Positions 14,827 to 56,885 are shown, counted from the stretch's first letter. The stretch is 59,225 bases of DNA from Bacteroidia bacterium (GCA_017995075.1 JAGOJO010000002.1:30319-89543), one strand, 5' to 3'. Translations and numbers: made by a program. The notes: generated by a model from the letters alone, not told the origin.

Positions 14827-14872
14827 TTTTGGGCCGCTGATTGATTATGAAAATTATGATTTGTTATGTTTT
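14827..14872 (+). repeat. Intergenic mosaic module X (plus orientation)
   Basis: TTTTGGGCCGCTGATTGATTATGAAAATTATGATTTGTTATGTTTT. A close inverted copy lies at 16741-16785. Confidence 0.7.
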
Positions 14873-14925
14873 ATTCCCGAATGTAAAATGAACGTATCGT
14901 TTTGTACTGAGTTTCCTCTGATGGT

Positions 14926-14965
14926 GGGAACACGGATTAAACGGATTTAACTGATTTACGCGGAT
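14926..14965 (+). repeat. Intergenic mosaic module Y: 9-10-nt-period (N)ACGGAT array, copy 1
   Basis: GGGAACACGGATTAAACGGATTTAACTGATTTACGCGGAT. It matches 16796-16835 at 34 of 40 positions, in the same orientation. Confidence 0.75.
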
Positions 14966-15048
14966 TATGGATGTCAGGTACTAGATTTTTTTTCATAAAT
15001 TGAATACTATCAATTTATCACTTTTCGTTTATCAGGAAACCTTTCACC

Positions 15049-16557
15049 ATGAAACAAAACCCATACACCGGGCTGAGTTTACTATGTCTGATCCTCTCAG
15101 CATGTAACCAGCCGTCAACGAGTAATGAGCGTGAAGTGTCTCTGGAATCAATGGCTCCCAACGAGGTCATTGATGAAAAGCGTACTGATGAATTAACTAC
15201 TGATCCTGCTAATTCATTTACAAGAATACCTGCCCAATCAAATGTTTCTATTCCACCCGCACTGCTTGCATATAATTATCTGGAGAAAGAAACAAAACCC
15301 TTGATTTGTGAATTGTCCAATCAGCAGGACACGGTCATCATCACTGCGGATGGTACTCGCCTGGAAATTCCTGAAGGCGCTTTTGAGTATCCCGATCATT
15401 CGTTACCACAGGGAAAAGTAAATTTTGAAGTAACCACGTATACAGATGATTTCTCTATCCTGAAGAAGGGCTTGTCTACAACTTCAAATGGTCGGTTACT
15501 TGAAACAGGTGGTATGTTGTATTGTTCTGCGTCCTGTGATGGCAGAGAGTTGCAATTGCGAAAAAGCATGAAAGTGCGTATTCCGACTCAGCAATTGAAG
15601 GAGAACATGGAGTTGTTCTATGGTGATGTGGGTGAAGATGGATCGGTTAACTGGATTCCCGCAGGACAACCGGTTGAAGGTCCTGCTTCAGAAACACAGG
15701 ATGCTGTACCTGCTCAACGAAGAGTTGCTTTAGCCGCATTAGCGAGGGATACGTCAAGTGAATTCAAGGTGATGAGTTCTGTTTCGAATGTGACTTCCGT
15801 TCGATTGCATATCACGCATAAACATCTTGAATCTGATCGCCCGAGTCAATGGTCGAGGAGTGTTTTTAATGCACTTAGAGCAGCAGATAAGCAACTTTGG
15901 GAGGAAGATATTTTCTGTACGCAGGTTTCGGTGACGATGCGCTTATTGGAAAATGCACGCTATGAGTTACAGGTTTTACCTGCTGATATTCCATTGATCG
16001 ATTCTATCGTGCGGATAGCAACCCGTGATTATTGGGATAAAAATAAATTTCCGGAAGTGGATTCAGATCATCAGATTCGTTATACCGCTGATTATTTCCT
16101 GCGTATGTTTAAGAAGGGATTCGATCTGACCGGCGAAGTGAAAAGTAAATTTAGTAATTCAGCCATGGTCTTGAAGTCGAAACGGGATGAACAAATGGTG
16201 ATGTCATATGCCATGTCGGTGAGCAGGTTGGGATGGATCAATTGTGATCGGTTTTACAACAGTCCGCAACCGCCGGTGGATATCATCGTTGAGTTGCCCA
16301 AAAATTTTAATGGCAGAGTTCAGTTGATGGTCGATGAGTTTCGTTCTTTCCTGAACGGAGAGGTGCAGAAGTCAGGAGCAAAATTCACATCGGTTCCGCG
16401 TGGGACAAAATATACACTGCTGGTTTTTCATAAAGACAATGAAGATCGCCTGGTCGTTTCGAAAACCAGACATATCGCTGATGGTACTGTCGTCAGCGCT
16501 TTCCGGTTTAAACCAGTTACTCTCGCACAACTGGAGGAAACGATCGCTCTTCGTTGA
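15049..16557 (+). CDS. Hypothetical lipoprotein
   Basis: 502-aa ORF with a signal peptide and lipobox (LILSAC). I recognised no family. It is flanked on both sides by mosaic repeat modules. Confidence 0.6.
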   Translation: MKQNPYTGLSLLCLILSACNQPSTSNEREVSLESMAPNEVIDEKRTDELTTDPANSFTRIPAQSNVSIPPALLAYNYLEKETKPLICELSNQQDTVIITADGTRLEIPEGAFEYPDHSLPQGKVNFEVTTYTDDFSILKKGLSTTSNGRLLETGGMLYCSASCDGRELQLRKSMKVRIPTQQLKENMELFYGDVGEDGSVNWIPAGQPVEGPASETQDAVPAQRRVALAALARDTSSEFKVMSSVSNVTSVRLHITHKHLESDRPSQWSRSVFNALRAADKQLWEEDIFCTQVSVTMRLLENARYELQVLPADIPLIDSIVRIATRDYWDKNKFPEVDSDHQIRYTADYFLRMFKKGFDLTGEVKSKFSNSAMVLKSKRDEQMVMSYAMSVSRLGWINCDRFYNSPQPPVDIIVELPKNFNGRVQLMVDEFRSFLNGEVQKSGAKFTSVPRGTKYTLLVFHKDNEDRLVVSKTRHIADGTVVSAFRFKPVTLAQLEETIALR

Positions 16558-16678: not shown

Positions 16679-16718
16679 AAATCCGTGCATATCCGAATGA
16701 CCTGGTTTATCCGCGTTC
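16679..16718 (-). repeat. ACGGAT-family array, minus orientation, copy 1
   Basis: AAATCCGTGCATATCCGAATGACCTGGTTTATCCGCGTTC. It matches 16963-17002 at 29 of 40 positions. The reverse complement carries ACGGAT / CGCGGAT words like module Y. Confidence 0.6.
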
Positions 16719-16740
16719 TTTCTACTGAATACTATTCTAC

Positions 16741-16785
16741 CAACATAAAAAAATCATAATCCTCATAACAAATCAGTGGCCAAAA
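16741..16785 (-). repeat. Intergenic mosaic module X (inverted copy)
   Basis: The reverse complement TTTTGGCCACTGATTTGTTATGAGGATTATGATTTTTTTATGTTG aligns with 14827-14872. Confidence 0.7.
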
Positions 16786-16795
16786 ATGCTCCAAC

Positions 16796-16835: not shown

Positions 16836-16868
16836 CAATTCCTTCTTAGATTTTAGATACCCTTCAAA

Positions 16869-16916
16869 TTTGCCAATATGCCAATTCACCAATCCACCAA
16901 TCCACCAACTCACCAA
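16869..16916 (+). repeat. Degenerate octamer array (NNCACCAA / NTGCCAA), 6 units
   Basis: TTTGCCAA TATGCCAA TTCACCAA TCCACCAA TCCACCAA CTCACCAA. Confidence 0.8.
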
Positions 16917-16962
16917 TTAATCCCCGGAGTATGCTCACTAGCCGGAGTTTTCTTCAAAACTC

Positions 16963-23290: not shown

Positions 23291-23851
23291 ATGAAAAATA
23301 AAGGAATAATACTCGTGCTGGTACTTTGTTGCTGTATCCAGGTGCTTGTTTCCGGTCCGGCTGCTTTGAACGACTGGAAGATTTTACCGGGAGATACCAT
23401 TCACATAGGGAATCAGGTGTGGATGAAAAAGAATGTTTCTATTCCGATGCCTAATAGCTTCTGGTATGAGCGGGACTCTGTAAATAACGTTGCAAATGGT
23501 CGATTGTATTTCTTCAGCAGTGCATTGGCCGCTTGTCCGAAAGGATGGCATCTACCTACCGACGAAGAATGGCAGGAGCTCATCAATCATTATGGCGGCG
23601 ATTCACTGGCTGCGAAAGAATTATTGAAAGGCGGCAGCTCCCGCATGAAACTAACGTTATCGGGTTACCGAAGTTCTAATAGTTCGAATGATCTTTTCGG
23701 GAAGAAGGATGAGCAGGGTTTTTACTGGACATCCACCGTTAAAGGTGAACAGACGGCATACGCCAGATGTTTCACTGCAGGATCGCCGGTGGTGACAGAT
23801 ATGTATTATCGGCGGGCCAATGCGTTCTCCGTTCGATATATTCGTGATTGA
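23291..23851 (+). CDS. FISUMP (Fibrobacter succinogenes major paralogous) domain protein
   Basis: Signal peptide, then GNQVWMKKN...CPKGWHLPTDEEWQELINHYGG...YWTST...FSVRYIRD, the typical FISUMP pattern. Confidence 0.75.
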   Translation: MKNKGIILVLVLCCCIQVLVSGPAALNDWKILPGDTIHIGNQVWMKKNVSIPMPNSFWYERDSVNNVANGRLYFFSSALAACPKGWHLPTDEEWQELINHYGGDSLAAKELLKGGSSRMKLTLSGYRSSNSSNDLFGKKDEQGFYWTSTVKGEQTAYARCFTAGSPVVTDMYYRRANAFSVRYIRD

Positions 23852-23852
23852 T

Positions 23853-23900
23853 ACCATGTCAGCATTCGCCTTGCGAACGCTGACATGGTGTGATTTTCTT
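23853..23900 (+). terminator. Strong hairpin plus TGATTTTCTT (terminator-like; 5' part of cloverleaf element copy 1)
   Basis: ACCATGTCAGC-ATTCGCCTTGCGAAC-GCTGACATGGT with an inner TTCGC/GCGAA stem. It starts 2 nt after the FISUMP gene stop. Confidence 0.7.
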
Positions 23901-24050
23901 GACCGCGAAGTAGAGCCATGAGATGTACTTTACTAGCAAAGTACATCTCATGGCACACTTCTCGGCACGGTTAGAAATATGTATCGCCCTGAAGTGTGCC
24001 GTGAAAAAGTACAAAAGTGCTGTTTCACGGCTCTACTTCAGGGGATGTGA
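23853..24050 (+). repeat. Cloverleaf-folding intergenic element, copy 1 (candidate structured RNA or ssDNA element)
   Basis: Direct repeat of 25260-25460. The 3' ~160 nt differ at about 7 positions. On paper it forms a four-way junction: P1 23907-17/24029-39, P2 23918-51, P3 23952-61/23991-24000, P4 24001-06/24023-28. Confidence 0.8.
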
Positions 24051-24057
24051 TGGGATT

Positions 24058-24159
24058 GCTTCTAGCTTCAAGCTTCTAGCCTCTAGCCTCAAGCCTCAAG
24101 CCTCAGGCCTTTAGCTTCTAGCCTTCAGCCCGCAGCCAGTAGCCCAAGGCCAACAGCAG
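24058..24159 (+). repeat. Degenerate heptamer array (GCYNNNN), about 14.5 units
   Basis: GCTTCTA GCTTCAA GCTTCTA GCCTCTA GCCTCAA GCCTCAA GCCTCAG GCCTTTA GCTTCTA GCCTTCA GCCCGCA GCCAGTA GCCCAAG GCCAACA. Confidence 0.85.
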
Positions 24160-25241: not shown

Positions 25242-25259
25242 ACCCAAGTTGATTGATAT

Positions 25260-25310
25260 AAACCTCGAAAGCATTCGCCTTGCGAAAGCTTTCGAGGTTT
25301 GATTTTCTTG
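25260..25310 (+). terminator. Strong hairpin plus TGATTTTCTT (terminator-like; 5' part of cloverleaf element copy 2)
   Basis: AAACCTCGAAAGC-ATTCGCCTTGCGAA-AGCTTTCGAGGTTT. Confidence 0.7.
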
Positions 25311-25460
25311 ACCGCGAAGTAGAGCCATAAGAGGTACTTTACTAGCAAAGTACCTCTCATGGCACACTTCTCGGCACGGTTAGAAATATGTATCATCCTG
25401 AAGTGTGCCGTGAAATAGTACAAAAGTGCTGTTTCACGGCTCTACTTCAGGGGATGTGAT
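25260..25460 (+). repeat. Cloverleaf-folding intergenic element, copy 2
   Basis: See copy 1. The P2 stem carries a compensated T:A to G:C change relative to copy 1 (25333/25354). Confidence 0.8.
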
Positions 25461-25571
25461 TGATAGAGGTGGTAGAGGTGAGGTGTTTGATTGGTGTTCC
25501 GTTAACAAAGAGTGGAAACGATTAAATCCTTCTGGCCTACCAACGGTCAACGTATTTTAGGCAATTACACC

Positions 25572-25623
25572 GCAGCCCGCAGCCGGTAGCCAGTAGCTTG
25601 CAGCCTGTAGCCTTCGGCTAGCG
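25572..25623 (+). repeat. Degenerate heptamer array (GCYNNNN), about 7 units
   Basis: GCCCGCA GCCGGTA GCCAGTA GCTTGCA GCCTGTA GCCTTCG GCTAGCG. It shares the GCCCGCAGCC..GTAGCC words with the 24058-24159 array. Confidence 0.8.
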
Positions 25624-40900: not shown

Positions 40901-43900
40901 ATGTCCGAAGAAAAAACATTACGCCTCATCAAGGTTGCCAAAGAGTTTAACGTAGGTATCCAGCATGTGGTAGAATATCTCGAGTCGAAAGGTGTGAAGG
41001 TTGATAGCAGCCCGAACGCAAAACTTTCGATGGAGGTGTATACCCTTTTGCAGGAAAAATATCAGCCCGATAAACTGGCGAAACTAGAAGCGCATGAGGT
41101 TACCCGTGAGAAGCTGAAACGCGATACCGTAACGATCGAGTCGAAATCGACTACGTCGGATGCACGCGAGCAGGAAGTTGAACCGGACAATGATGAGAAT
41201 CTTAAAAAGAGTCTTGAGGAGATAAAACTCTCCGGATCTTCTACAAAGAAGGCTACTCCGAAAGCTAAAAAATCAGAGGACACTCCTGCAGAGCCCGAAG
41301 TTATTAAGGCGAAGGCGGATGTGGAGTCACCAAAGATTCTGGGTAAGATCGACCTGGAGGCTGGCGCGAAGAAAAAAACTGCGAAGAAAAAAGAAGAGGA
41401 TGATGCTAAAGCGGCAGAAGCGGCTCAGGCAGAAGCGGCTGAAGTGAAGAAAAAAGCTGCAAAGAAAGCGGCGGATGATGAAGCGGCAATTGCTGCAGAG
41501 AAAGTAAAGCAGGAAGCAAAGAAGGAGAAAGAGAAGCCTGTTAAGGTGGAAGTGAAGGAGAAGGCCAAAGAAAAAGAAAAACCTGCGGAGGCACCAGCTG
41601 CTAAACCTGTTGTTGCTGAAGCGAAGAAGGAACCTGAAGTAACTGCAAAGGCTACAACTGAGAAACCAGTTGCTGAAGAGAAACCCGCAGCTCCTGCAGC
41701 TCCGGAAACTCCCGCAGCTCCTGCAGGACCGGAACATATCGGTATTCGGGTAGATAAATTGAGTGGACCAAATATTCTTGGTAAAATTGAACTTCCTGTT
41801 GATCCACCCAAAAAGAAACCGGTGGCTTCAAGTTCCGATTTTGAAGGAGATAAGAAGAAAAGAAAACGCAAAGAGAAAAATGGTCCTCAGGGACAGGGTC
41901 AAGGTGGCCAACGTCCTGCCGGGCAACCTGGTCAACCTGGTCAGCGTCCGCAAGGGCAAGGACAAGGAGGTGGCCAACGTTTTGGTCCGGGTGGACAACG
42001 TCCGGGAGGTCCGGGAGGTCCAGGCGGTCAGCGTCGCGACAATCGCCCAGGCCAACGTGGTAAGGGTGTTCCACTAGTTATTACTCCAAAGGCGGAGCCT
42101 ACCGATAAAGAAATTCAAGATCAGATTAAAGCAACACTGGCTCGTTTGAGTGGTGGTGGTAAATCGAAGTCTGCAAAATTACGTCGTGAAAAACGTGATT
42201 TACATGCGCAGCGTGAAGAAGCCCGTGCAGAACAACAGTCAGAAAAAGCAATTCAGGTGACGGAATTCGTTTCAGCAAATGAGTTGGCGAAGATGATGGA
42301 TGTTCAGGTGAATCAGGTAATCAGTACCTGTATGAGCCTCGGATTATTCGTATCGATTAACCAGCGTCTGGATGCAGAAACGATTACTGTAGTGGCTGAA
42401 GAGTTCGGGTTTAAAGTAGAATTCGTTTCAGCGGATGTGCAGGATTCAATATCTGATGAAACTGATGCTCCGGAAGATTTATTACCACGTGCGCCGATTG
42501 TAACCGTTATGGGTCACGTCGATCACGGTAAGACTTCCTTGCTGGATTATGTACGTAAAGCAAATGTAATAGCCGGTGAGGCGGGTGGTATCACTCAGCA
42601 CATTGGTGCATACGAAGTAAAACTGGAAGATGGTCGTAAGATTACCTTCCTCGATACACCGGGTCACGAAGCATTTACTGCGATGCGTGCACGTGGTGCG
42701 AAAGTAACCGACGTAGCGATTATCGTTATTGCTGCAGATGATAGTGTGATGCCTCAAACGAAAGAGGCGATTAATCACGCACAGGCTGCCGGAGTACCGA
42801 TCGTTTTTGCTATCAATAAAGTGGATAAGCCGGATGCGAATCCTGAACGAATCAAGGAGCAACTTGCGGCAATGAATTACCTCGTCGAAGATTGGGGTGG
42901 TAAATATCAGAGTCAGGAAATCTCTGCGAAAAAGGGAATGAATATCGATAAGTTACTCGATAAAGTATTGCTGGAAGCAGAACTGCTCGATTTGAAAGCG
43001 AATCCCGGACGCCTCGCAAAAGGTACTGTCATTGAATCTTCACTCGATAAAGGACGTGGTTATGTAACTACAATTCTGGTACAAACCGGAACCCTTAAAA
43101 TGGGTGATGTAGTGTTGGCAGGTTGTCATAGTGGTCGCGTAAAAGCAATGTTCAATGAGCGTGGCAACAGAATTAAAGAAGCAGGCCCATCAACTCCTAC
43201 AATGATTCTTGGTATGTCCGGCGCAGTGCAGGCGGGCGATCAGTTCAATGTGATGGAAGATGAGCGTGAAGCAAGAGAGATCGCTAATAAGCGTTTGCAA
43301 TTGCAGCGTGAACAGGGAATTCGTACACATAAACATATTACCCTCGATGAAATCGGTCGTCGATTGGCAATAGGAAACTTCAAGGAACTTAATATCATCG
43401 TAAAAGGTGACGTGGATGGTTCTGTAGAAGCACTTGCCGATTCGTTACTGAAGTTGTCAACGCAGGAAATTCAGGTAAATGTTATTTTGAAAGGAGTTGG
43501 TCAGATTTCTGATTCTGATATCATGCTGGCTTCTGCTTCAAATGCAATCATCGTCGGCTTCCAGGTTCGCCCAAGCAGCAATGCACGTAAACTGGCTGAA
43601 CAAGAAGAAATCGATATCCGACTCTATTCTATTATTTACGACGCTATCAACGAAGTGAAGGCGGCAATGGAAGGAATGTTGGCTCCTGAGTTTGAAGAGA
43701 AAATTGTTTGTAACGTTGAAGTACGTGAAACATTCAAAATTCCGAAAGTTGGTACAGTTGCCGGTTGTATGGTGACAGATGGTAAGATTAACCGTAATAC
43801 CAAAATACGAATTATCAGAGATGGTATCGTAATGCACTCCGGTGAACTCTCTTCATTGAAACGTTTTAAAGACGATGCAAAAGATGTTCAGGCAGGAATG

Positions 43901-43996
43901 GAATGCGGATTGAGTGTACATAATTTCAACGATATCAAAGTAGGCGATATTATTGAAGGGTACGAAAACGTTGCGATAAAACGTACGTTAGCGTAA
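40901..43996 (+). CDS. infB: Translation initiation factor IF-2
   Basis: 1031 aa with GTPase motifs ([21 protein letters not shown]). The long N-terminal low-complexity region contains K/A/E-rich and G/Q/P/R-rich tracts. Confidence 0.97.
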
Positions 43997-44186
43997 TACG
44001 GCGGCATACTGCTGCTTACGGCGGCATACTGCTGCTTACGGCGGCATACGGCGGCATACTGCTAGATACGGCTACATACGGCTAAGTACGGCTGCATACG
44101 GCTAGATACGGCGGCATACGGCTAGATACGGCTACATACGGCTACATACGGTTTTGAATAGCTGAATACGGCTTCATAGGGTGTTT
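43997..44186 (+). repeat. Degenerate decamer array (TACGGCNNCA), about 19 phased units, starting on the base after the infB stop
   Basis: The first 40 nt are an exact 20-nt duplication (TACGGCGGCATACTGCTGCT x2). These are followed by TACGGCGGCA, TACGGCTACA, TACGGCTAGA and similar units with no phase slip. Confidence 0.9.
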
Positions 44187-44360
44187 AGTGTTTTGATGAG
44201 AATTGCTACTAAGGTATGCAAGCATCATTTTATTGAAGACTATCAACGTAATTTACTAAAGAAAACAAATTTTTGTTGCCAGTAGTCAGTAAATAACTGT
44301 GAACATCAGTATATCTGTAGAAATCGGTATATCGGTATATCCGTATGAATCTGTAGCCAT

Positions 44361-44440
44361 CCGTCTATCCGTCTATCAGTCTATCAGTCTATTAGTCTAT
44401 CCGTTTATCCGTATTTCAGTCTATCCGTTTATCTGTATGA
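44361..44440 (-). repeat. Degenerate octamer array (CCGTCTAT/CAGTCTAT; reverse complement ATAGACGG), 10 units
   Basis: CCGTCTAT CCGTCTAT CAGTCTAT CAGTCTAT TAGTCTAT CCGTTTAT CCGTATTT CAGTCTAT CCGTTTAT CTGTATGA. Confidence 0.85.
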
Positions 44441-44524
44441 ATCCGTAAAAGCCGTATACAGCCGTATAAAACCGTATAAAGCCGTATCAAACCGTATAAA
44501 GCCGCATAAAGCCGCATACAGCCC
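44441..44524 (-). repeat. Degenerate decamer array (GCCGTATAAA; reverse complement TTTATACGGC), about 8 units, inverted relative to 43997-44186
   Basis: ATCCGTAAAA GCCGTATACA GCCGTATAAA ACCGTATAAA GCCGTATCAA ACCGTATAAA GCCGCATAAA GCCGCATACA. The core ATACGGC is on the opposite strand to the left array. Confidence 0.9.
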
Positions 44525-44529
44525 AAATC

Positions 44530-44949
44530 CTACCTCACTCCCAAATACGCTGCAATCAAGATTAGAATAACACCCGCTGCACTATATGCCATTTTCTGAT
44601 TCCTAAGCTTTGAAACATAATTAGTAAGTGCTACCTGTATGAATGTGATTTCATTTAATGTTTTGTCTGCTTCTTCGTCACTTAGATAGCCTAGTTTTTT
44701 AGCAAGTAGGATTTGTGTTTCAAGCTCAAATGACGAGCCAATGGCGATGTCCATGAAGTGTGCCTGATCTGGAATCGTGCGTCTTCCACAGCCTTCAGAA
44801 ATATTGGAAGGAATAGAAACAGATGATTTCCGGATTTGATTGGTGAGTGCAAACCTCTCTTCTTTCGGAAAGGGCTTGGTTTGGTTGTAGATGTCAATGG
44901 TTAAGTCCATTGCTTTGCTCCAAATGTGGAGTTTCTTAAAGTTTCTCAT
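44530..44949 (-). CDS. Four-helix-bundle protein (23S rRNA intervening-sequence protein / S23p family) with hydrophobic C-terminal extension
   Basis: FKKLHIWSKAMDL...IYN.TK.FPKEERFALTNQIRKSSVSIPSNISEG...F...A.GS..ELETQ is the classic family signature. The last ~25 aa (AAGVILILIAAYLGV) are atypical. Confidence 0.8.
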   Translation of the reverse strand: MRNFKKLHIWSKAMDLTIDIYNQTKPFPKEERFALTNQIRKSSVSIPSNISEGCGRRTIPDQAHFMDIAIGSSFELETQILLAKKLGYLSDEEADKTLNEITFIQVALTNYVSKLRNQKMAYSAAGVILILIAAYLGVR

Positions 44950-44965
44950 TTGATTAAATTTTTTC

Positions 44966-44973
44966 CAAAGCTA
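44966..44973 (-). promoter_or_regulatory. Bacteroidetes -7 box TAGCTTTG
   Basis: Exact TAnnTTTG match on the minus strand, 16 nt upstream of ATG 44949. Confidence 0.45.
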
Positions 44974-45235
44974 TTTCACGGACCTCCTTTAGTCGTATAA
45001 TAAATATTTGTATTCGTTTGTAAATACTTATTAGTCGAAATCTCATGAATTTCAGGGGAAAAGATTTTGTGCCAGATACAGATTGACCTGATTTCAGGAG
45101 GAGAAAATTTACTGAACCCGGGAGGAAGATAATTTAGAGGGGACCCGTTGTCGCTCGATTGAATCATGGTATATTTCATTCCGCGATGTCTGCTTTTGAT
45201 AAAAAATAGTATTTTCATCCCCATAACCTGATATT

Positions 45236-46498
45236 ATGGAACGTTTCACCGGCCTGCTGGGCTTGATCTTGATTCTCGGACTGGCATATCTTGCCAGCAA
45301 TAACCGCAAGGCTATAAATATGCGGTTGGTGATTAGCGGATTATTGCTTCAGTTGTTTATAGCTGTCTTGGTTTTGAAAATACCGCCGGTTACTGCGTTC
45401 TTTCAGACAATCGGGCATGGTATGGAGAAAATCGAAATGTTTGCGCGTCAAGGTGCTTCTTTCGTTTATGGAGGCCTTGCTGCTATGCAATTTGATGGTA
45501 CTGTTGCAAATTATACGGCAGGTGGTTTTGTGTTTGCGTTTAATATAACGGCTACTATTATTCTGGTTTGCGTGCTTGTGGCTATCCTGTATCATTTCGG
45601 GATTATGCAGAAAATAATTTCAGTGATAGCGAAAGCGATGAATTTTATTATGCGGGTGAGTGGTGCTGAGGCACTGAGTAATGTTGCGAGTGCTTTCGTT
45701 GGACAAGTAGAAGCGCAGGTGATGATTCGTCCTTATCTCGCCGGTATGACCAATAGTGAGTTGCTGGCCAGTATGAGCGGAAGTCTTGCCTGTATTGCCG
45801 GCGGAATTCTAGTGGTGTATGTAAACATGGGTGCCGCTGCCGGTTTTGATCTCGCACCTAAACTGATTGCGGCTTCATTAATGGCTGCTCCCGGTGCATT
45901 GGTGATTTCAAAAATTGTATTTCCCGAGACAGAAGAAAGTCAAACTATGGGCAATGTGAAATTGGAAGTGAAAAGTCCTTACATTAATGTTGTGGATGCA
46001 ATTTCTCATGGTGCCGGTGATGGTTTTAAAATTGCGATGAATGTAATTGCGATGCTGATTGGATTTATCGCGTTGATCGCAATGATTGATTGGACGCTTG
46101 TGAAAGTTGCGCACATCTTTAATCCTGATTTTGATCTTACGTTGAACTGGATATTCGGTAAGGTGTTCTATCCAATGGCGTGGGCAATGGGCGTGCCGGG
46201 CGAAGACGTGAATAGTGTGGCGACGTTACTCGGACAAAAACTTTCGATCAACGAATTTGTAGCGTTTCAACATCTGGCTGATAAGTCTGTGCCTGTTGTC
46301 ACGGAGAAAGGACTGTTAATCGTATCAATTGCTATTTGCGGGTTTGCAAATTTCAGCAGTGTTGGTATGCAAATCGGTGGTATTGGTGAGTTGGCTCCTG
46401 GTCGTCGTGCGGATCTTGCACGACTGGGTCTGAAGGCCCTCTTTTGTGGTACACTTGCTTCCTATCTCTCTGCTACAATTGCCGGTATTATTATTTAA
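45236..46498 (+). CDS. NupC/NupG-family concentrative nucleoside transporter
   Basis: 420 aa, polytopic, with the patterns GLLGL..ILGLAYL.S.NRK.I, GA.FVYG and NEFVAF. Confidence 0.88.
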   Translation: MERFTGLLGLILILGLAYLASNNRKAINMRLVISGLLLQLFIAVLVLKIPPVTAFFQTIGHGMEKIEMFARQGASFVYGGLAAMQFDGTVANYTAGGFVFAFNITATIILVCVLVAILYHFGIMQKIISVIAKAMNFIMRVSGAEALSNVASAFVGQVEAQVMIRPYLAGMTNSELLASMSGSLACIAGGILVVYVNMGAAAGFDLAPKLIAASLMAAPGALVISKIVFPETEESQTMGNVKLEVKSPYINVVDAISHGAGDGFKIAMNVIAMLIGFIALIAMIDWTLVKVAHIFNPDFDLTLNWIFGKVFYPMAWAMGVPGEDVNSVATLLGQKLSINEFVAFQHLADKSVPVVTEKGLLIVSIAICGFANFSSVGMQIGGIGELAPGRRADLARLGLKALFCGTLASYLSATIAGIII

Positions 46499-53487: not shown

Positions 53488-56400
53488 TTATTTGATTACG
53501 TTGAATCGTTTTACAGCTACTTTATCATTCGTGATCAACTGTAGGAAATACATACCTGCATCAAGTGATTGTATGTTTACCTGAACACGGTTTCCATAGT
53601 TCATTGGATTTTCAGCCATGACCAACTTTCCGCTCATATCAGTTATCTGAATTGCGTCGATCGACATCGTTTCTGAAAGTTCAACAGTTAGTTGTTCAAT
53701 TGCCGGATTCGGATACACCTGTGAAATAAGCGAATTGTCATTTTCATTTATTCCGGTGGTGATAGGGAAGGCAATTACTGTTCCATCTCCTAATGCTGCA
53801 TACAATCCGAAGTCAGCTCCGTTCTGGTTAGCTGCTGGGTTGAGGAAGCCGGATGCAAACACTGTTGCTGTTCCGCCAGTGAGTCCGCTCAGATTGGCAG
53901 TGTATGCTGCTACAACTGTGCTGTTATTGTTACCTGGAGTGATTTGCAATGTATAAGCTGCCGGACTTACACTCAGGTATGGAGTGATGTCGGTATAAGC
54001 TGCGTTGTCAACAATTACTCCTACTCCTGCTGCAACAACATCAACCGTTGGCGCATCTGTAGAACCATGCACTACGCGGAATTCTACGTTGGCAGTATTC
54101 GCTGCTGCTTCACGCATTTCATCCTGCAGTAAGAGGGTGAAGCCGGTTGGACGTCCATCAGGATTTACAGCAAATGATGCAGGTGTTAAAACCCCACTCG
54201 CAATTGCTGTATATGTTCCTCCGTTTGCGAAAGTAACATTGTAGCTTACCAGTGTGTCGTTATAGCTGGTAGAATTTTTAGGAGCAATTCCAATGTTTAC
54301 CGGAGCATCTCCAATGATGTCAATATAAGGAGTTGCTGTACGGAAGGCGAAATTGTCAAGCGCAATGTTGCCTCCGATGTAAACGTCAACACTGTCAGCA
54401 ATCGGATCAGCGCAGTTGTGAATTACCTGTAATCTTGCTACACTGGTTTGTGGTAACTGGAGTACAGTTCCATCTGGTGCTGCTGCAAACAATCCGAAGG
54501 CTTCTCCATTTTGATTCGCTGCCGGATTAAGGAATCCAGAGGCAAATACAACGAGAGCAGCGTCTGCAACCGGAGTAAGTGCAGCCTGATAACTTGCTAC
54601 GATAGTATTGGTGCCTGCTGCTTTAACATCTAAGAGATAAGAGTTGGCAGGTACACTGATGTAACCGGTGAAGTCGGTGTATGCTGCATTGTTTACAAGT
54701 GTCGCTACACCACGTGCAACTACATCTACAGCAGGTGCATCAGTAGCTCCATGCAATACTCTGAAATCCACATTTCCGGATACTTCTGCTGATTCACTCA
54801 TTCCGGATGAAAGTATCAATTGGAAGGCTGTAGATACAGCATTTGGGTTCGTAGCGAAGTTGGCTGGAGTTAGTACTCCGTTTGCAATCGCTACATATGA
54901 TTCTCCATTCGCTAATGTAACAGGGATATTCACCAGAGTATCGTTGATAGATGAAGAGGTGGACGGTGCAATACCAATGTTTAATACTGTATTGGATGGT
55001 ACATCCAGGTATGGAGTTGCTTTACGGAATTCAAAATCGTTAATAGACAATGCGCCGTTGATGTAGATGTCAACACTGGCAGCAGCAGGATCCGCAGCAT
55101 TGTGAATGACCTGTAAGCGTGAATTGCTGGTGTCGTTTAATGCCAGTACAGTACCGTCAGGAAGTGCAGCAAATAATCCAAAGGCTTCTCCATTCTGGTT
55201 GGCTGAAGGGGTGAGGAACCCGGATGCAAATACAACCGCAGCACCGCCAGCAAGTCCTGATAATGGTGCATAATAGGTGGAAAGAATTGGTGTACCTGCT
55301 GATGGTGTAATGTCAATGAGATAGTCGGAAGGAGGTACACTGAGATATCCGGCAAGATCCGTGTATGCTGCGCTGTCAACAAGCTGTGCTACTCCACGAG
55401 CATATACATCTACTGCAGGTGCATCGGTAGCGCCATGTAAGATGGCCAGATCTACATCGCCTGCATTTTGTGCAGCTTCCTGCATACCGTTAAACAACAG
55501 TAATTGAAATGCTGTGCTGATTCCTTCCGGATTGGCAGCAAATGATCCTGGTGTAAGAACGCCATTTGCAACAGCTACATAGGTTTCTCCATCGTTGAGC
55601 AATACAGGAATATTTACGAGTGTATCATTGGCGCTGGTGCTGGTAGATGGGGCAATTCCAATGTTTTGGGTAGCTCCCGAGGTAATGTCAATGAATGGAG
55701 TTGCAGAGCGGAATGCAAAATCATCCAATAAAATACTTCCGTTCAGGTATACATCGACCAGGGCTGCACCTGGATCTGCTGCATTGTGAATGACCTGGAT
55801 ACGCGCTGTTCCTGTTGGATTTAACGGTACTACATCACCGTTAGCGAAGGCTGCATATAATCCAAATCCTTCTCCATTTTGGTTCTGAACAGGATCCAGG
55901 TAACCTGATGCAAATACTACTGCTGATGCTCCTGCTACACCGGAAAGTTCTGCTGAATAAGTTGCAATTACCTGCGAGTTGTTGTTGCCGGGTGTGAGAT
56001 CAAGAAGATAATCTGCGGCCGGTACACTGATATAGCCAGTAAGATCAGTATATGCAGCGTCATTAACTAATGTGGCTACTCCTTGTGCAATTACATCTAC
56101 AGTAGGGGCATCCGTTGAACCATGGAGAACGCGGAAGTCTACTTCTCCTGCATTTAATGCTGCAGTGCGCATACCATCACTCAATAATACCTGAAAGCCT
56201 GTTGGACGACCATCAGGATTTGCTGCAAAAGAGGAGGGAGTAAGTACTCCACTTGCAATAGCAACATATTTTTCGTTGGCTTGTAATACTACCGGAATGT
56301 TGACCAGCGTGTCATTTACTGTTGAGCTGGTAGATGGTGCAATTCCGATGTTTAAAGGTAATCCCGATGGAACCGGGAGATACGATGTTGCTGTACGGAA

Positions 56401-56562
56401 AGCAAAATCGTTAAGTGTCAGGTTGCCGTTTACATAAACGTCAACTAATGCAGCAGCCGGATCAGCACAGTTGTGAATTACCTGTAATTCGGCTTGTGCC
56501 TGACTCTTTAATGCAATGCCGCTGCATAACATGAAAGCGAGTAAAAGTTTGTGTTTTTTCAT
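53488..56562 (-). CDS. Secreted protein with four ~228-aa super-repeats (eight DUF4397-like domains) and a T9SS C-terminal sorting domain
   Basis: ORF 53488..56667. The start is set at ATG 56562 (MKKHKLLLAFMLCSGIALKSQAQ). LQVIHN(C/A)ADP units recur every ~684 nt. The C-terminus has a VYPNPAIEQLTVEL...GMYFLQL Por tail. Confidence 0.8.
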   Translation of the reverse strand: MKKHKLLLAFMLCSGIALKSQAQAELQVIHNCADPAAALVDVYVNGNLTLNDFAFRTATSYLPVPSGLPLNIGIAPSTSSTVNDTLVNIPVVLQANEKYVAIASGVLTPSSFAANPDGRPTGFQVLLSDGMRTAALNAGEVDFRVLHGSTDAPTVDVIAQGVATLVNDAAYTDLTGYISVPAADYLLDLTPGNNNSQVIATYSAELSGVAGASAVVFASGYLDPVQNQNGEGFGLYAAFANGDVVPLNPTGTARIQVIHNAADPGAALVDVYLNGSILLDDFAFRSATPFIDITSGATQNIGIAPSTSTSANDTLVNIPVLLNDGETYVAVANGVLTPGSFAANPEGISTAFQLLLFNGMQEAAQNAGDVDLAILHGATDAPAVDVYARGVAQLVDSAAYTDLAGYLSVPPSDYLIDITPSAGTPILSTYYAPLSGLAGGAAVVFASGFLTPSANQNGEAFGLFAALPDGTVLALNDTSNSRLQVIHNAADPAAASVDIYINGALSINDFEFRKATPYLDVPSNTVLNIGIAPSTSSSINDTLVNIPVTLANGESYVAIANGVLTPANFATNPNAVSTAFQLILSSGMSESAEVSGNVDFRVLHGATDAPAVDVVARGVATLVNNAAYTDFTGYISVPANSYLLDVKAAGTNTIVASYQAALTPVADAALVVFASGFLNPAANQNGEAFGLFAAAPDGTVLQLPQTSVARLQVIHNCADPIADSVDVYIGGNIALDNFAFRTATPYIDIIGDAPVNIGIAPKNSTSYNDTLVSYNVTFANGGTYTAIASGVLTPASFAVNPDGRPTGFTLLLQDEMREAAANTANVEFRVVHGSTDAPTVDVVAAGVGVIVDNAAYTDITPYLSVSPAAYTLQITPGNNNSTVVAAYTANLSGLTGGTATVFASGFLNPAANQNGADFGLYAALGDGTVIAFPITTGINENDNSLISQVYPNPAIEQLTVELSETMSIDAIQITDMSGKLVMAENPMNYGNRVQVNIQSLDAGMYFLQLITNDKVAVKRFNVIK

Positions 56563-56885
56563 TTTAATGGATTTAGTGGTTGTTATCATGAACAACAAGA
56601 CTTGTATCTTTTTGTTAGTGATGGAATTTGTCACTATGAAAAATACCTTTAAGTCACACGAGATCAAGCAGCTGTGTCAATAATGGTTTTTTTGTGCCTT
56701 GTACTTTTTTAATACATGTTGGCATTGGAGCAATGCAACTAAACTTTTTTGTTTAACATAATGTTTATCACTCTTTTTCTGTTGTGTAGTCCTTGTCAGG
56801 TATGTGTAACAAATTCAATTTGCAGAAATATTTTATGCCAATACCGCCCGTTTTAAATGGACGGGTTTTAATTCTGTGGTAATGG

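Follow-up and report, generated by a model that had tools for sequence, protein, structure and literature searches.

Inverted tandem-repeat modules between infB and a four-helix-bundle gene in an uncultured Bacteroidia lineage: a candidate foldback hairpin at the site of a missing terminator

What do two inverted arrays of ten-nucleotide repeats do between the ends of two convergent genes, at a place where a transcription terminator would be expected? The question was raised by a stretch of 59,225 nucleotides from a Bacteroidia bacterium (GCA_017995075.1, JAGOJO010000002.1:30319-89543; hereafter the window), a Bacteroidota chromosome segment with rimP-nusA-infB, a nucleoside transporter gene and genes for type IX secretion-tail proteins. 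A repeat module lies downstream of infB in the window, and another, in inverted orientation, lies downstream of a convergent gene of the four-helix-bundle (4HB) family, the protein family of the 23S rRNA intervening sequences (IVS). We favour, with about even confidence, the reading that the two tandem-repeat modules are a foldback pair which acts as an RNA hairpin at transcript 3' ends and replaces the infB terminator that is missing here. Short tandem intergenic arrays resembling the short tandemly repeated repetitive (STRR) sequences are known already, as are IVS-like stems, and the locus is a variant of both; the STRR sequences of cyanobacteria are another case of short tandem intergenic repeats. 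To our knowledge, both STRR-type repeats and the 4HB 'IVS protein' family have remained without an assigned function from their first description, around 1990, onwards. Most of the interest of the locus lies in what it led to: inverted short tandem arrays and 4HB genes are associated in an asymmetric way, as described further below.

The original prediction for this region, made without database searches, was an inverted pair of decamer arrays with a common ATACGGC core. The reverse complement of the right arm bore this out: on the minus strand, which is the sense strand of the 4HB gene, the arm consists of TTTATACGGC and TGTATGCGGC units with a core identical to that of the left arm. When the RNA of 43990-44535 was folded in silico, the two arms formed a stem with each other on the plus strand (-176 kcal/mol, z -5.1) and on the minus strand (-188 kcal/mol, z -7.1), so that the long interrupted stem foreseen for the RNA is predicted for both strands. 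The linkers of the two arms have drifted apart, being GGC, TAG, TAC or TGC on the left and TTT, TGT or TTG on the right, and pairing in the window is therefore limited to 7 of every 10 nt, with a 3x3 internal loop in each unit. Of the ten mismatches between the arms that are transitions, nine are G.U pairs in the 4HB-sense strand; we regard this excess as modest evidence that the RNA of this strand is of importance.

The infB / 4HB / nupC locus of other strains and species was retrieved via the 4HB protein and its homologues. In two sister lineages, with 4HB proteins 60-62% identical, the short intergenic region consists of little more than a single hairpin built from these decamers. The hairpin of loci L011 and L012 consists of (CATACGGCTG)x3.5, a loop of 27 nt and (CCGTATGCAG)x3.5, and its stem of 36 bp is perfect (dG -85, z -12). 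That of L014 consists of CATACGGCTG-CATGCGGTGG-CATACGG, a loop of 18 nt and CCGTATG-CCACCGCATG-CAGCCGTATG; the stem of 27-32 bp is likewise perfect, and its middle unit CATGCGGTGG is matched by CCACCGCATG. Between L014 and L011 the middle unit shows three compensated changes and zero uncompensated ones. The perfect complementarity of the sister-species arms, with their compensated variants, further backs a stem between the inverted modules.

No canonical terminator had been recognised after infB, and this was upheld from two sides. Terminator-like sites numbered 0 in 43800-45300 of the window, and the relatives that have no arrays carry one: in L125 and L126 (NusA 89% identical), which also have no 4HB gene, a hairpin with a T-run lies directly after infB. 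The foldback therefore occupies the site at which a terminator is expected. Because the two modules are inverted, transcripts of either strand can form the arm-arm hairpin. We infer that the arrays are transcribed, so that the decamer arms of infB transcripts or of 4HB-strand transcripts would fold into a long hairpin. Such a hairpin may substitute for the canonical infB terminator and, by termination or by stabilisation, could set the 3' ends of the infB and 4HB transcripts or shield them; it would also be a plausible substrate for cleavage by RNase III. The arrangement of inverted arms is shared with the arrays that bracket 4HB genes elsewhere and with the 23S rRNA intervening sequences. With a bidirectional intrinsic terminator the locus has in common its position between convergent genes (infB and the 4HB gene), a strong hairpin, and the site at which relatives have a hairpin and T-run. 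The stem of such a terminator is usually 5-15 bp long and followed by a U-run, whereas the stems here measure 27-36 bp or much more, are built of tandem units and have no consistent U-tract.

Several observations weigh against the hairpin as a selected 3'-end structure. Since the U-tract is not consistent, the hairpins are not canonical intrinsic terminators; the only locus with U5 after the hairpin is L014, where UGAUUUUUAAG follows on the 4HB-sense strand. The diverged linkers of the window arms speak against a perfect stem being under strong selection at present, and the interrupted pairing would weaken cleavage by RNase III. A wobble test across 4HB cassettes, for which relaxed and noisy alignments were used, gave 44 G.U against 46 A.C on the sense strand and thus no RNA-level bias. 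Single arms without a partner occur at several other loci (L033, L025), so the hairpin is not the defining feature of the module. Lastly, the perfect palindromes of the sister species could persist through template switching at the DNA level rather than through selection.

The repeats start without any gap, as the final A of the infB stop codon TAA is base 1 of the first ATACGGC core. The coordinates of the features are collected in Table 1.

Table 1. Features of the region between infB and the 4HB gene and of the two flanking genes, in window coordinates (TRF, Tandem Repeats Finder; ORF, open reading frame).
Feature	Coordinates	Strand	Basis
infB (translation initiation factor IF-2)	40901..43996	+	ORF of 1031 aa; IF2_N, GTP_EFTU and IF-2 Pfam matches in the identical locus L001
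Exact 20-nt duplication, TACGGCGGCATACTGCTGCT x2	43997..44036		sequence read
Left arm, 10-nt units, core (A)TACGGC on the plus strand (infB sense)	43997..44186		TRF, phase analysis, unit logo
AT-rich spacer	44187..44304		haplotype comparison; conserved blocks GAATTGCTA, TTATTGA, TTTAGTTGCC
Octamer zone, inner part of the right-hand module	44305..44440		TRF 44323-44346 and 44359-44433
Right arm, ~9 decamers GCCGTATAAA on the plus strand	44435..44524		TRF, sequence read, unit logo
Four-helix-bundle (4HB; 23S rRNA IVS protein family) gene, 139 aa	44530..44949	-	PF05635, TIGR02436

The first 40 nt are the exact 20-nt duplication that had been noticed at the outset, and each copy is able to form a small GGCGGCA/UGCUGCU hairpin (predicted). 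For the left arm 19 uninterrupted units had been counted. The decamer array does extend to about 44186, but only 16 units of the form TACGGCNNNA are in register (43997-44156, three of them TACTGC variants), and the 3-4 decamers that follow after 44156 are degenerate. TRF reported this arm at 43996-44151 with period 10, 15.6 copies and a score of 158. All 14 occurrences of TACGG in 43990-44200 share one phase modulo 10, and TACGGC was counted 13 times in the 528-nt region compared with 6 times in the remaining 58.7 kb of the window. In the unit logo TAC.G is invariant and the linker variable; in both arms and across loci the core of 5-7 nt is far better conserved than the 3-nt linker. The G+C content of 44187-44360 is 32%, as against 44% for the whole window. 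In the spacer, inspection by eye and a sigma-70 scan gave nothing convincing as a promoter motif, Bacteroidetes-type promoters being outside the coverage of the tool. Octamers had been placed at 44361-44440; the octamer array is present, and the zone proved to be longer, beginning at about 44305. TRF scored it at 44359-44433 (period 8, 9.4 copies, score 87), with a weaker octamer periodicity from ~44305 (row 44323-44346, period 8), and the units read ATCNGTNT on the plus strand and ACGGAT-type on the minus strand. As RNA, the ACGGAU octamers may also suggest a CsrA-like sponge with GGA motifs. The right arm was reported at 44435-44523 (period 10, 9.0 copies, score 108) and also carries phased TAAA tracts. 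It lies 5-7 nt from the 4HB stop codon, as is the case in L011, L014 and L083, and the distance of 5 nt given earlier for the window was correct. A Rho utilisation site was rejected by inspection, as the sense-strand units contain no YC dinucleotides. In a scan of the whole window against Rfam at gathering thresholds no rRNA and no other family was found.

In ten metagenomic or genomic copies of the locus with an identical 4HB protein, the intergenic region has one of four lengths (533, 521, 496 or 477 nt). An assembly gap of Ns interrupts the 496-nt version, and the comparison of units refers to the three fully sequenced haplotypes. A comparison of array length between strains had been proposed, and the lengths were found to vary by whole units: two in the left arm, several in the octamer zone, and one and two in the right arm. 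The 20-nt block at the start of the left arm is missing from the other strain haplotype. Between the window and L001, identity is 99.0-99.7% in infB, nupC, the 4HB gene and the upstream intergenic region, compared with 64% for the spacer between the arrays and 75% for the entire intergenic region. Many contigs break inside the arrays. The arrays are best explained as changing through slippage and recombination, at a pace well above that of the flanking genes. For annotation this means that hypervariable arrays break assemblies and may replace ordinary terminators, which is relevant to the quality of metagenome-assembled genomes and to strain typing in an abundant freshwater lineage.

The same observations can be read without any function. 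The arrays would then be neutral or selfish micro- and minisatellites, similar to STRR or long simple-sequence repeats, that slip in permissive intergenic DNA, their palindromes being homogenised at the DNA level. We consider this possible, if on the unlikely side. The change of unit number in every array and the contrast between the spacer and flanks that are at least 99% identical speak for it, as do the diverged arm linkers of the window species and the missing sense-strand wobble bias across cassettes. The clade also contains unrelated families of intergenic units (heptamers AGCCNNN, octamers CCAATNCA and 11-mers), which are missing from the distant L125 and L126, and the infB locus of L124 has heptamers and 11-mers, not decamers.

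Part of what counts against neutral slippage came from other loci. Pattern scans in related Bacteroidia genomes and metagenomes revealed a composite module, in which ATACGGC decamers are followed by a T-rich junction and then by ACGGAT-type octamers. The module lies downstream of uvrB (L033, L099) and of asd (L098); an inverted pair of modules separates mrdA from rodA (L100/L120), and in L025 and L119 the module is located between a UvrD-like helicase gene and DUF4290. Its position has persisted across species at the orthologous uvrB sites (L033/L099), at DUF4290 (L025/L119) and at infB in four lineages. The stop codon next to the array mostly belongs to a gene whose sense strand is the ATACGGC strand. 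A module with the same order and core at five or more loci, at least, that stays at orthologous positions and keeps a consistent sense-strand orientation after stop codons is not readily accounted for by functionless arrays; nor are the conserved core, the exclusively compensated changes between the L011 and L014 stems, and the exact position at which relatives carry a terminator.

Other repeats were noted at the module loci and in the scans. Downstream of uvrB, in L033 (4690-4900) and L099, the module is followed by 2-3 copies of a hairpin-rich element of ~100 nt (…AACCCCGTAGGGGTG…CCCGCGCTCCGAAGGAGCGCG…), a further example of the small repeats dispersed in the clade. L033 also contains an AGGCTAG heptamer array of 195 nt (1117-1311). 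In L100 (480-830) the reading frame of mrdA (PBP2) continues through the left decamer array and the spacer to a stop codon; barring a frame error in the assembly, mrdA would gain a repeat-encoded C-terminal extension of ~60 aa. Many ATACGGC decamer arrays of unrelated phyla also came up in the pattern scans, together with eukaryote-like contigs rich in telomere-type repeats (TTAGGG/CCCTAA). Because any decamer array with an ATACGGC core matches the patterns, these matches were treated as ascertainment. Within telomere-type TTAGGG/CCCTAA repeats, CTTTATACGG decamer arrays were seen in the lake metagenome contigs L089, L097, L101, L104, L112, L118, L122 and L123; presumably these are subtelomeric DNA of a freshwater eukaryote and unrelated to the bacterial arrays. 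A genome-wide littering by ATCCG/ATCCGT was rejected, as the enrichment in the other intergenic DNA of the window is slight (3.8 compared with 3.0 per kb) and TACGG is depleted there.

ATACGGC arrays had been proposed as companions of 4HB genes, and this was not supported. No 4HB gene is present at the uvrB, asd, mrdA-rodA and helicase-DUF4290 module loci, and among 103 loci (631 kb) fetched by decamer patterns 0 contained one. Approached from the side of the 4HB genes, the result was different. We scored 26 distinct 4HB loci, all outside the window clade, for bracketing inverted versus direct repeats. The inverted-repeat score was 29-67 in 19 of the 26, with arrays that are mostly heptamers, and in 22 of 26 the inverted score exceeded the direct score. 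The bracketing arrays begin 0-60 nt past the 4HB stop codon. Among window genes used as a control 2 of 47 scored at least 35, neither with tandem arrays, and among pseudo-genes placed in clade loci 1 of 102 did so, namely the 4HB gene of L124; the 4HB loci were counted at a score of at least 29 and the controls at 35 or more, which in the controls corresponds to ~2% of positions. The association is thus asymmetric: 4HB genes usually have inverted arrays, and ATACGGC arrays are not tied to 4HB genes.

The loci scored span Bacteroidia, cyanobacterial and proteobacterial plasmids, and viral contigs. In L127 a 4HB gene lies between cysD and cysN, flanked by GTTGGCTATTGGCTATTGGCTATTGGC and with GCCAATAGCCAATAGCCAAAAGC past the stop codon; in L086/L130 it lies between two aminoacyl-tRNA synthetase genes and is flanked by inverted GCTNCTG heptamers. 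Twenty viral-contig 4HB loci (16 scored, 13 counted as distinct) likewise have inverted arrays around the ORF. Ten plasmid loci were taken from Nostoc, Anabaena, Calothrix, Stanieria, Leptolyngbya, Picosynechococcus, Geminocystis, Pseudanabaena and Azospirillum, and in 9 of these 10 the ORF has inverted arrays on both sides, made of 3-15 short units, mostly of 7 nt. The viral and plasmid contexts include cas6|4HB|cas4 and cmr2|4HB|cmr3. Insertion of 23S_rRNA_IVP genes into cas operons has been described before, with the repeats unmentioned (PMC3936711). In the literature searched we found no paper stating a general rule that links 4HB genes to inverted arrays; a description outside that literature is possible. 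At L152, the cas6|4HB|cas4 locus of a Pseudanabaena plasmid, AAAAGCT is repeated ~15 times upstream and AAAAGCC ~10 times downstream in direct orientation, and a further inverted array lies 158 nt upstream, so that direct and inverted arms coexist.

The regularity that emerges is that a gene of the 4HB family usually has inverted short tandem arrays on either side, in the geometry that is cut by RNase III in 23S IVS. If the arrays act as RNA stems, this would explain how operons (cysDN, cas, cmr) can harbour such small genes and stay intact, and it would give at least part of the STRR-type repeats a testable role.

These findings also raise the alternative that the window arms belong to a rearranged IVS-like 4HB cassette and serve the cassette, by excision from RNA through RNase III or by insertion and exchange at the DNA level, and not the host genes. 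The bracketing of 19 of 26 4HB genes by arrays 0-60 nt past the stop codon, with the window's right arm at 5 nt, agrees with it, as does the location of such cassettes inside operons (cysD|cysN, cas6|cas4, cmr2|cmr3; PMC3936711). The bracketed arrangement is only half present in the window: an array lies within ~60 nt after the stop codon, but no inverted partner lies within ~170 nt upstream of the start codon. In the window (44950-45235) and in three sister lineages no array was found upstream of the 4HB ORF, and both arms are 3' of it; one arm is in the usual place after the stop codon and its partner lies further downstream, next to infB. The bracketing inverted-repeat score in the window clade is 16-29. 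Six-frame translations of the spacers gave no hidden Markov model match even at E <=100, and thus no trace of a 4HB ORF in the stretch between the arms. Decamer modules occur at loci that have no 4HB gene (the 0 of 103 loci given above), and neither a target-site duplication nor a recombinase gene was seen. We hold it to be improbable that the arms are those of a rearranged cassette and serve the cassette itself.

One further locus bears on cassette exchange. At the infB-nupC site of L124 (12590-15360) a different 4HB gene was found, 41% identical although NusA is 94% identical. The site holds two extra small genes, an HATPase_c_4 fragment and DUF6678, and in place of the decamers it has nested inverted heptamer arrays and 11-mers, with CAGCTAC and GGTAGCY arrays flanking the 4HB gene. 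The presence of another 4HB gene with other arrays at the same site suggests that the cassette has been replaced, and from the sequence the infB-nupC site looks like a hotspot for cassette turnover.

A wider reading would join these observations. In it the 4HB/23S-IVS family genes with their inverted short arrays form a widespread and, as far as we found, undescribed class of small IVS-like insertion cassettes that reside in rRNA genes, operons and intergenic DNA; the STRR-type arrays of cyanobacteria and of the window clade would be their arms, empty sites or targets in trans; the 4HB protein would bind the arrays or help to generate or mobilise them; and the window hairpin would be an ORF-less or rearranged member. 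Taken as a whole, we regard this reading as speculative and rather doubtful.

We compared the locus with known systems of repeats. Heptamer direct repeats in Beggiatoaceae, cyanobacteria and some Bacteroidetes cause contig breaks and have no established function (PMC4679880). The long simple-sequence repeats of these groups (PMC4679880) and the STRR sequences of heterocystous cyanobacteria are intergenic arrays of 7-11 nt units in several unit families, often near start or stop codons, that are dispersed, strain-variable, contig-breaking and sporadic across lineages, and the window locus shares these traits. It consists of short units placed head to tail in non-coding DNA (period 10 with 15.6 and 9.0 copies, period 8 with 9.4), its unit family is dispersed in the lineage, and its copy number varies between strains. 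The classical STRR unit is 7 nt long, whereas the window combines units of 10 and 8 nt in a composite whose order is fixed. The window lineage differs further in being an uncultured Bacteroidia clade, and in that its two inverted modules at this locus give rise to a hairpin which sister species have conserved, with compensated changes.

The resemblance to 23S rRNA intervening sequences, which had been pointed out in the original prediction, held in part. In Coxiella the S23p ORF lies in the loop of a 28-bp stem that is cut by RNase III, and the stem contains tandem GACAGAT heptamers with a strain-variable copy number (PMC4990558). The IVS of Coxiella and Leptospira share with the window the protein family and long complementary arms that form a stem (PMC4990558), which in the window is predicted for both strands, and the usual bracketing of 4HB genes by inverted arrays extends the likeness. 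Such elements are regarded as selfish and as having been acquired horizontally (PMC4990558). The likeness ends at the position of the gene and of the element: the ORF of an IVS is inside the stem loop and the window 4HB ORF is beside the hairpin, and IVS are found in helix 9, 25 or 45 of 23S rRNA whereas the window element lies between protein-coding genes. The window has 10-nt units, its arms are far longer (~190 and ~90 nt) and imperfectly matched, and cleavage by RNase III would here be a matter of analogy.

REP/BIME and REPIN elements are also dispersed extragenic repeats located just 3' of genes, often as inverted pairs that form hairpins, and palindromes of the REP/BIME type are thought to terminate transcription or to stabilise mRNA 3' ends (PMC3733652, PMC3116915). 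A REP is a single palindrome of 20-40 nt with a GTAG/CGTC head and a link to RAYT transposases, whereas the window arms are tandem arrays of variable number. The window units are 10-nt direct repeats without internal palindromes and do not belong to this class; no RAYT gene was found in Pfam scans of the neighbouring genes, and the search did not go beyond those scans. A CRISPR array was rejected as well, the units being contiguous and 8-10 nt long, compared with repeats of 23-47 nt and unique spacers. In a comparison with miniature inverted-repeat transposable elements (MITEs) and foldback elements at seven loci we saw inverted arms and module ends of degenerate units, and no common terminal signature or duplication.

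It had also been argued that a period of 10 nt is about one helical turn and that every core would face the same side of the duplex. The repeat of B-DNA is ~10.5 bp, so that 19 units drift by almost a full turn. Since arrays with periods of 7, 8, 10 and 11 occupy equivalent positions, the helical-phase argument is unsupported, and phasing on one helix face was rejected. The related explanation, a DNA-level array for cooperative protein binding or bending with its cores on one helix face, is very improbable in our view. A core of 5-7 nt that is better conserved than the linker is what would be expected of a sequence-specific site, and the phased TAAA tracts of the right arm point in the same direction. 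The related arrays of period 7, 8 and 11 and the difference between 10.0 bp and the helical repeat count against it, as do unit numbers that vary freely between strains; nor do the arrays at the other loci have a candidate DNA-binding gene linked to them.

The 4HB protein of the window matches PF05635 (E 2.9e-36) and TIGR02436 (E 2.3e-35), and a PADLOC scan of the protein found no defence family. Its C-terminus (window 44530-44600) carries an extra hydrophobic tail of ~20 aa, AAGVILILIAAYLGVR and equivalents, which is conserved in the relatives of the clade and absent from typical members of the family. The 4HB proteins of the window clade may be tail-anchored membrane proteins.

Several other repeats were observed in the window. 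Heptamer arrays of CTAGCC/CAAGCC and GCAGCC/GTAGCC lie in intergenic DNA at 24061-24140 and 25570-25620, a 9-mer array of ACGGATTTA at 14932-14958 is likewise intergenic, and the octamer CCAATNCA is repeated at 16867-16918, with related TTGGTGAA octamers in L100/L120. An element of ~207 nt occurs twice, at 23845-24051 and 25254-25460. The two copies are 91% identical, contain several strong hairpins, are each preceded by a gene end and followed by a heptamer array, and have no match in Rfam. Their first hairpin shows compensated changes (CCATGTCAGC.../...GCTGACATGG versus CCTCGAAAGC.../...GCTTTCGAGG), and the element could be a structured RNA or a MITE. A gene of 502 aa at 15049-16557, without a Pfam match, is bracketed by colinear inverted repeats (39 nt at 82%, 27 nt and 19 nt) located at 14827-15010 and 16698-16786, which suggests another inserted cassette between two convergent terminators. 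Finally, at 54311-56487 four tandem copies of 684-687 nt, 61-72% identical, lie within a large gene (53488-56667) and probably encode repeated protein domains.

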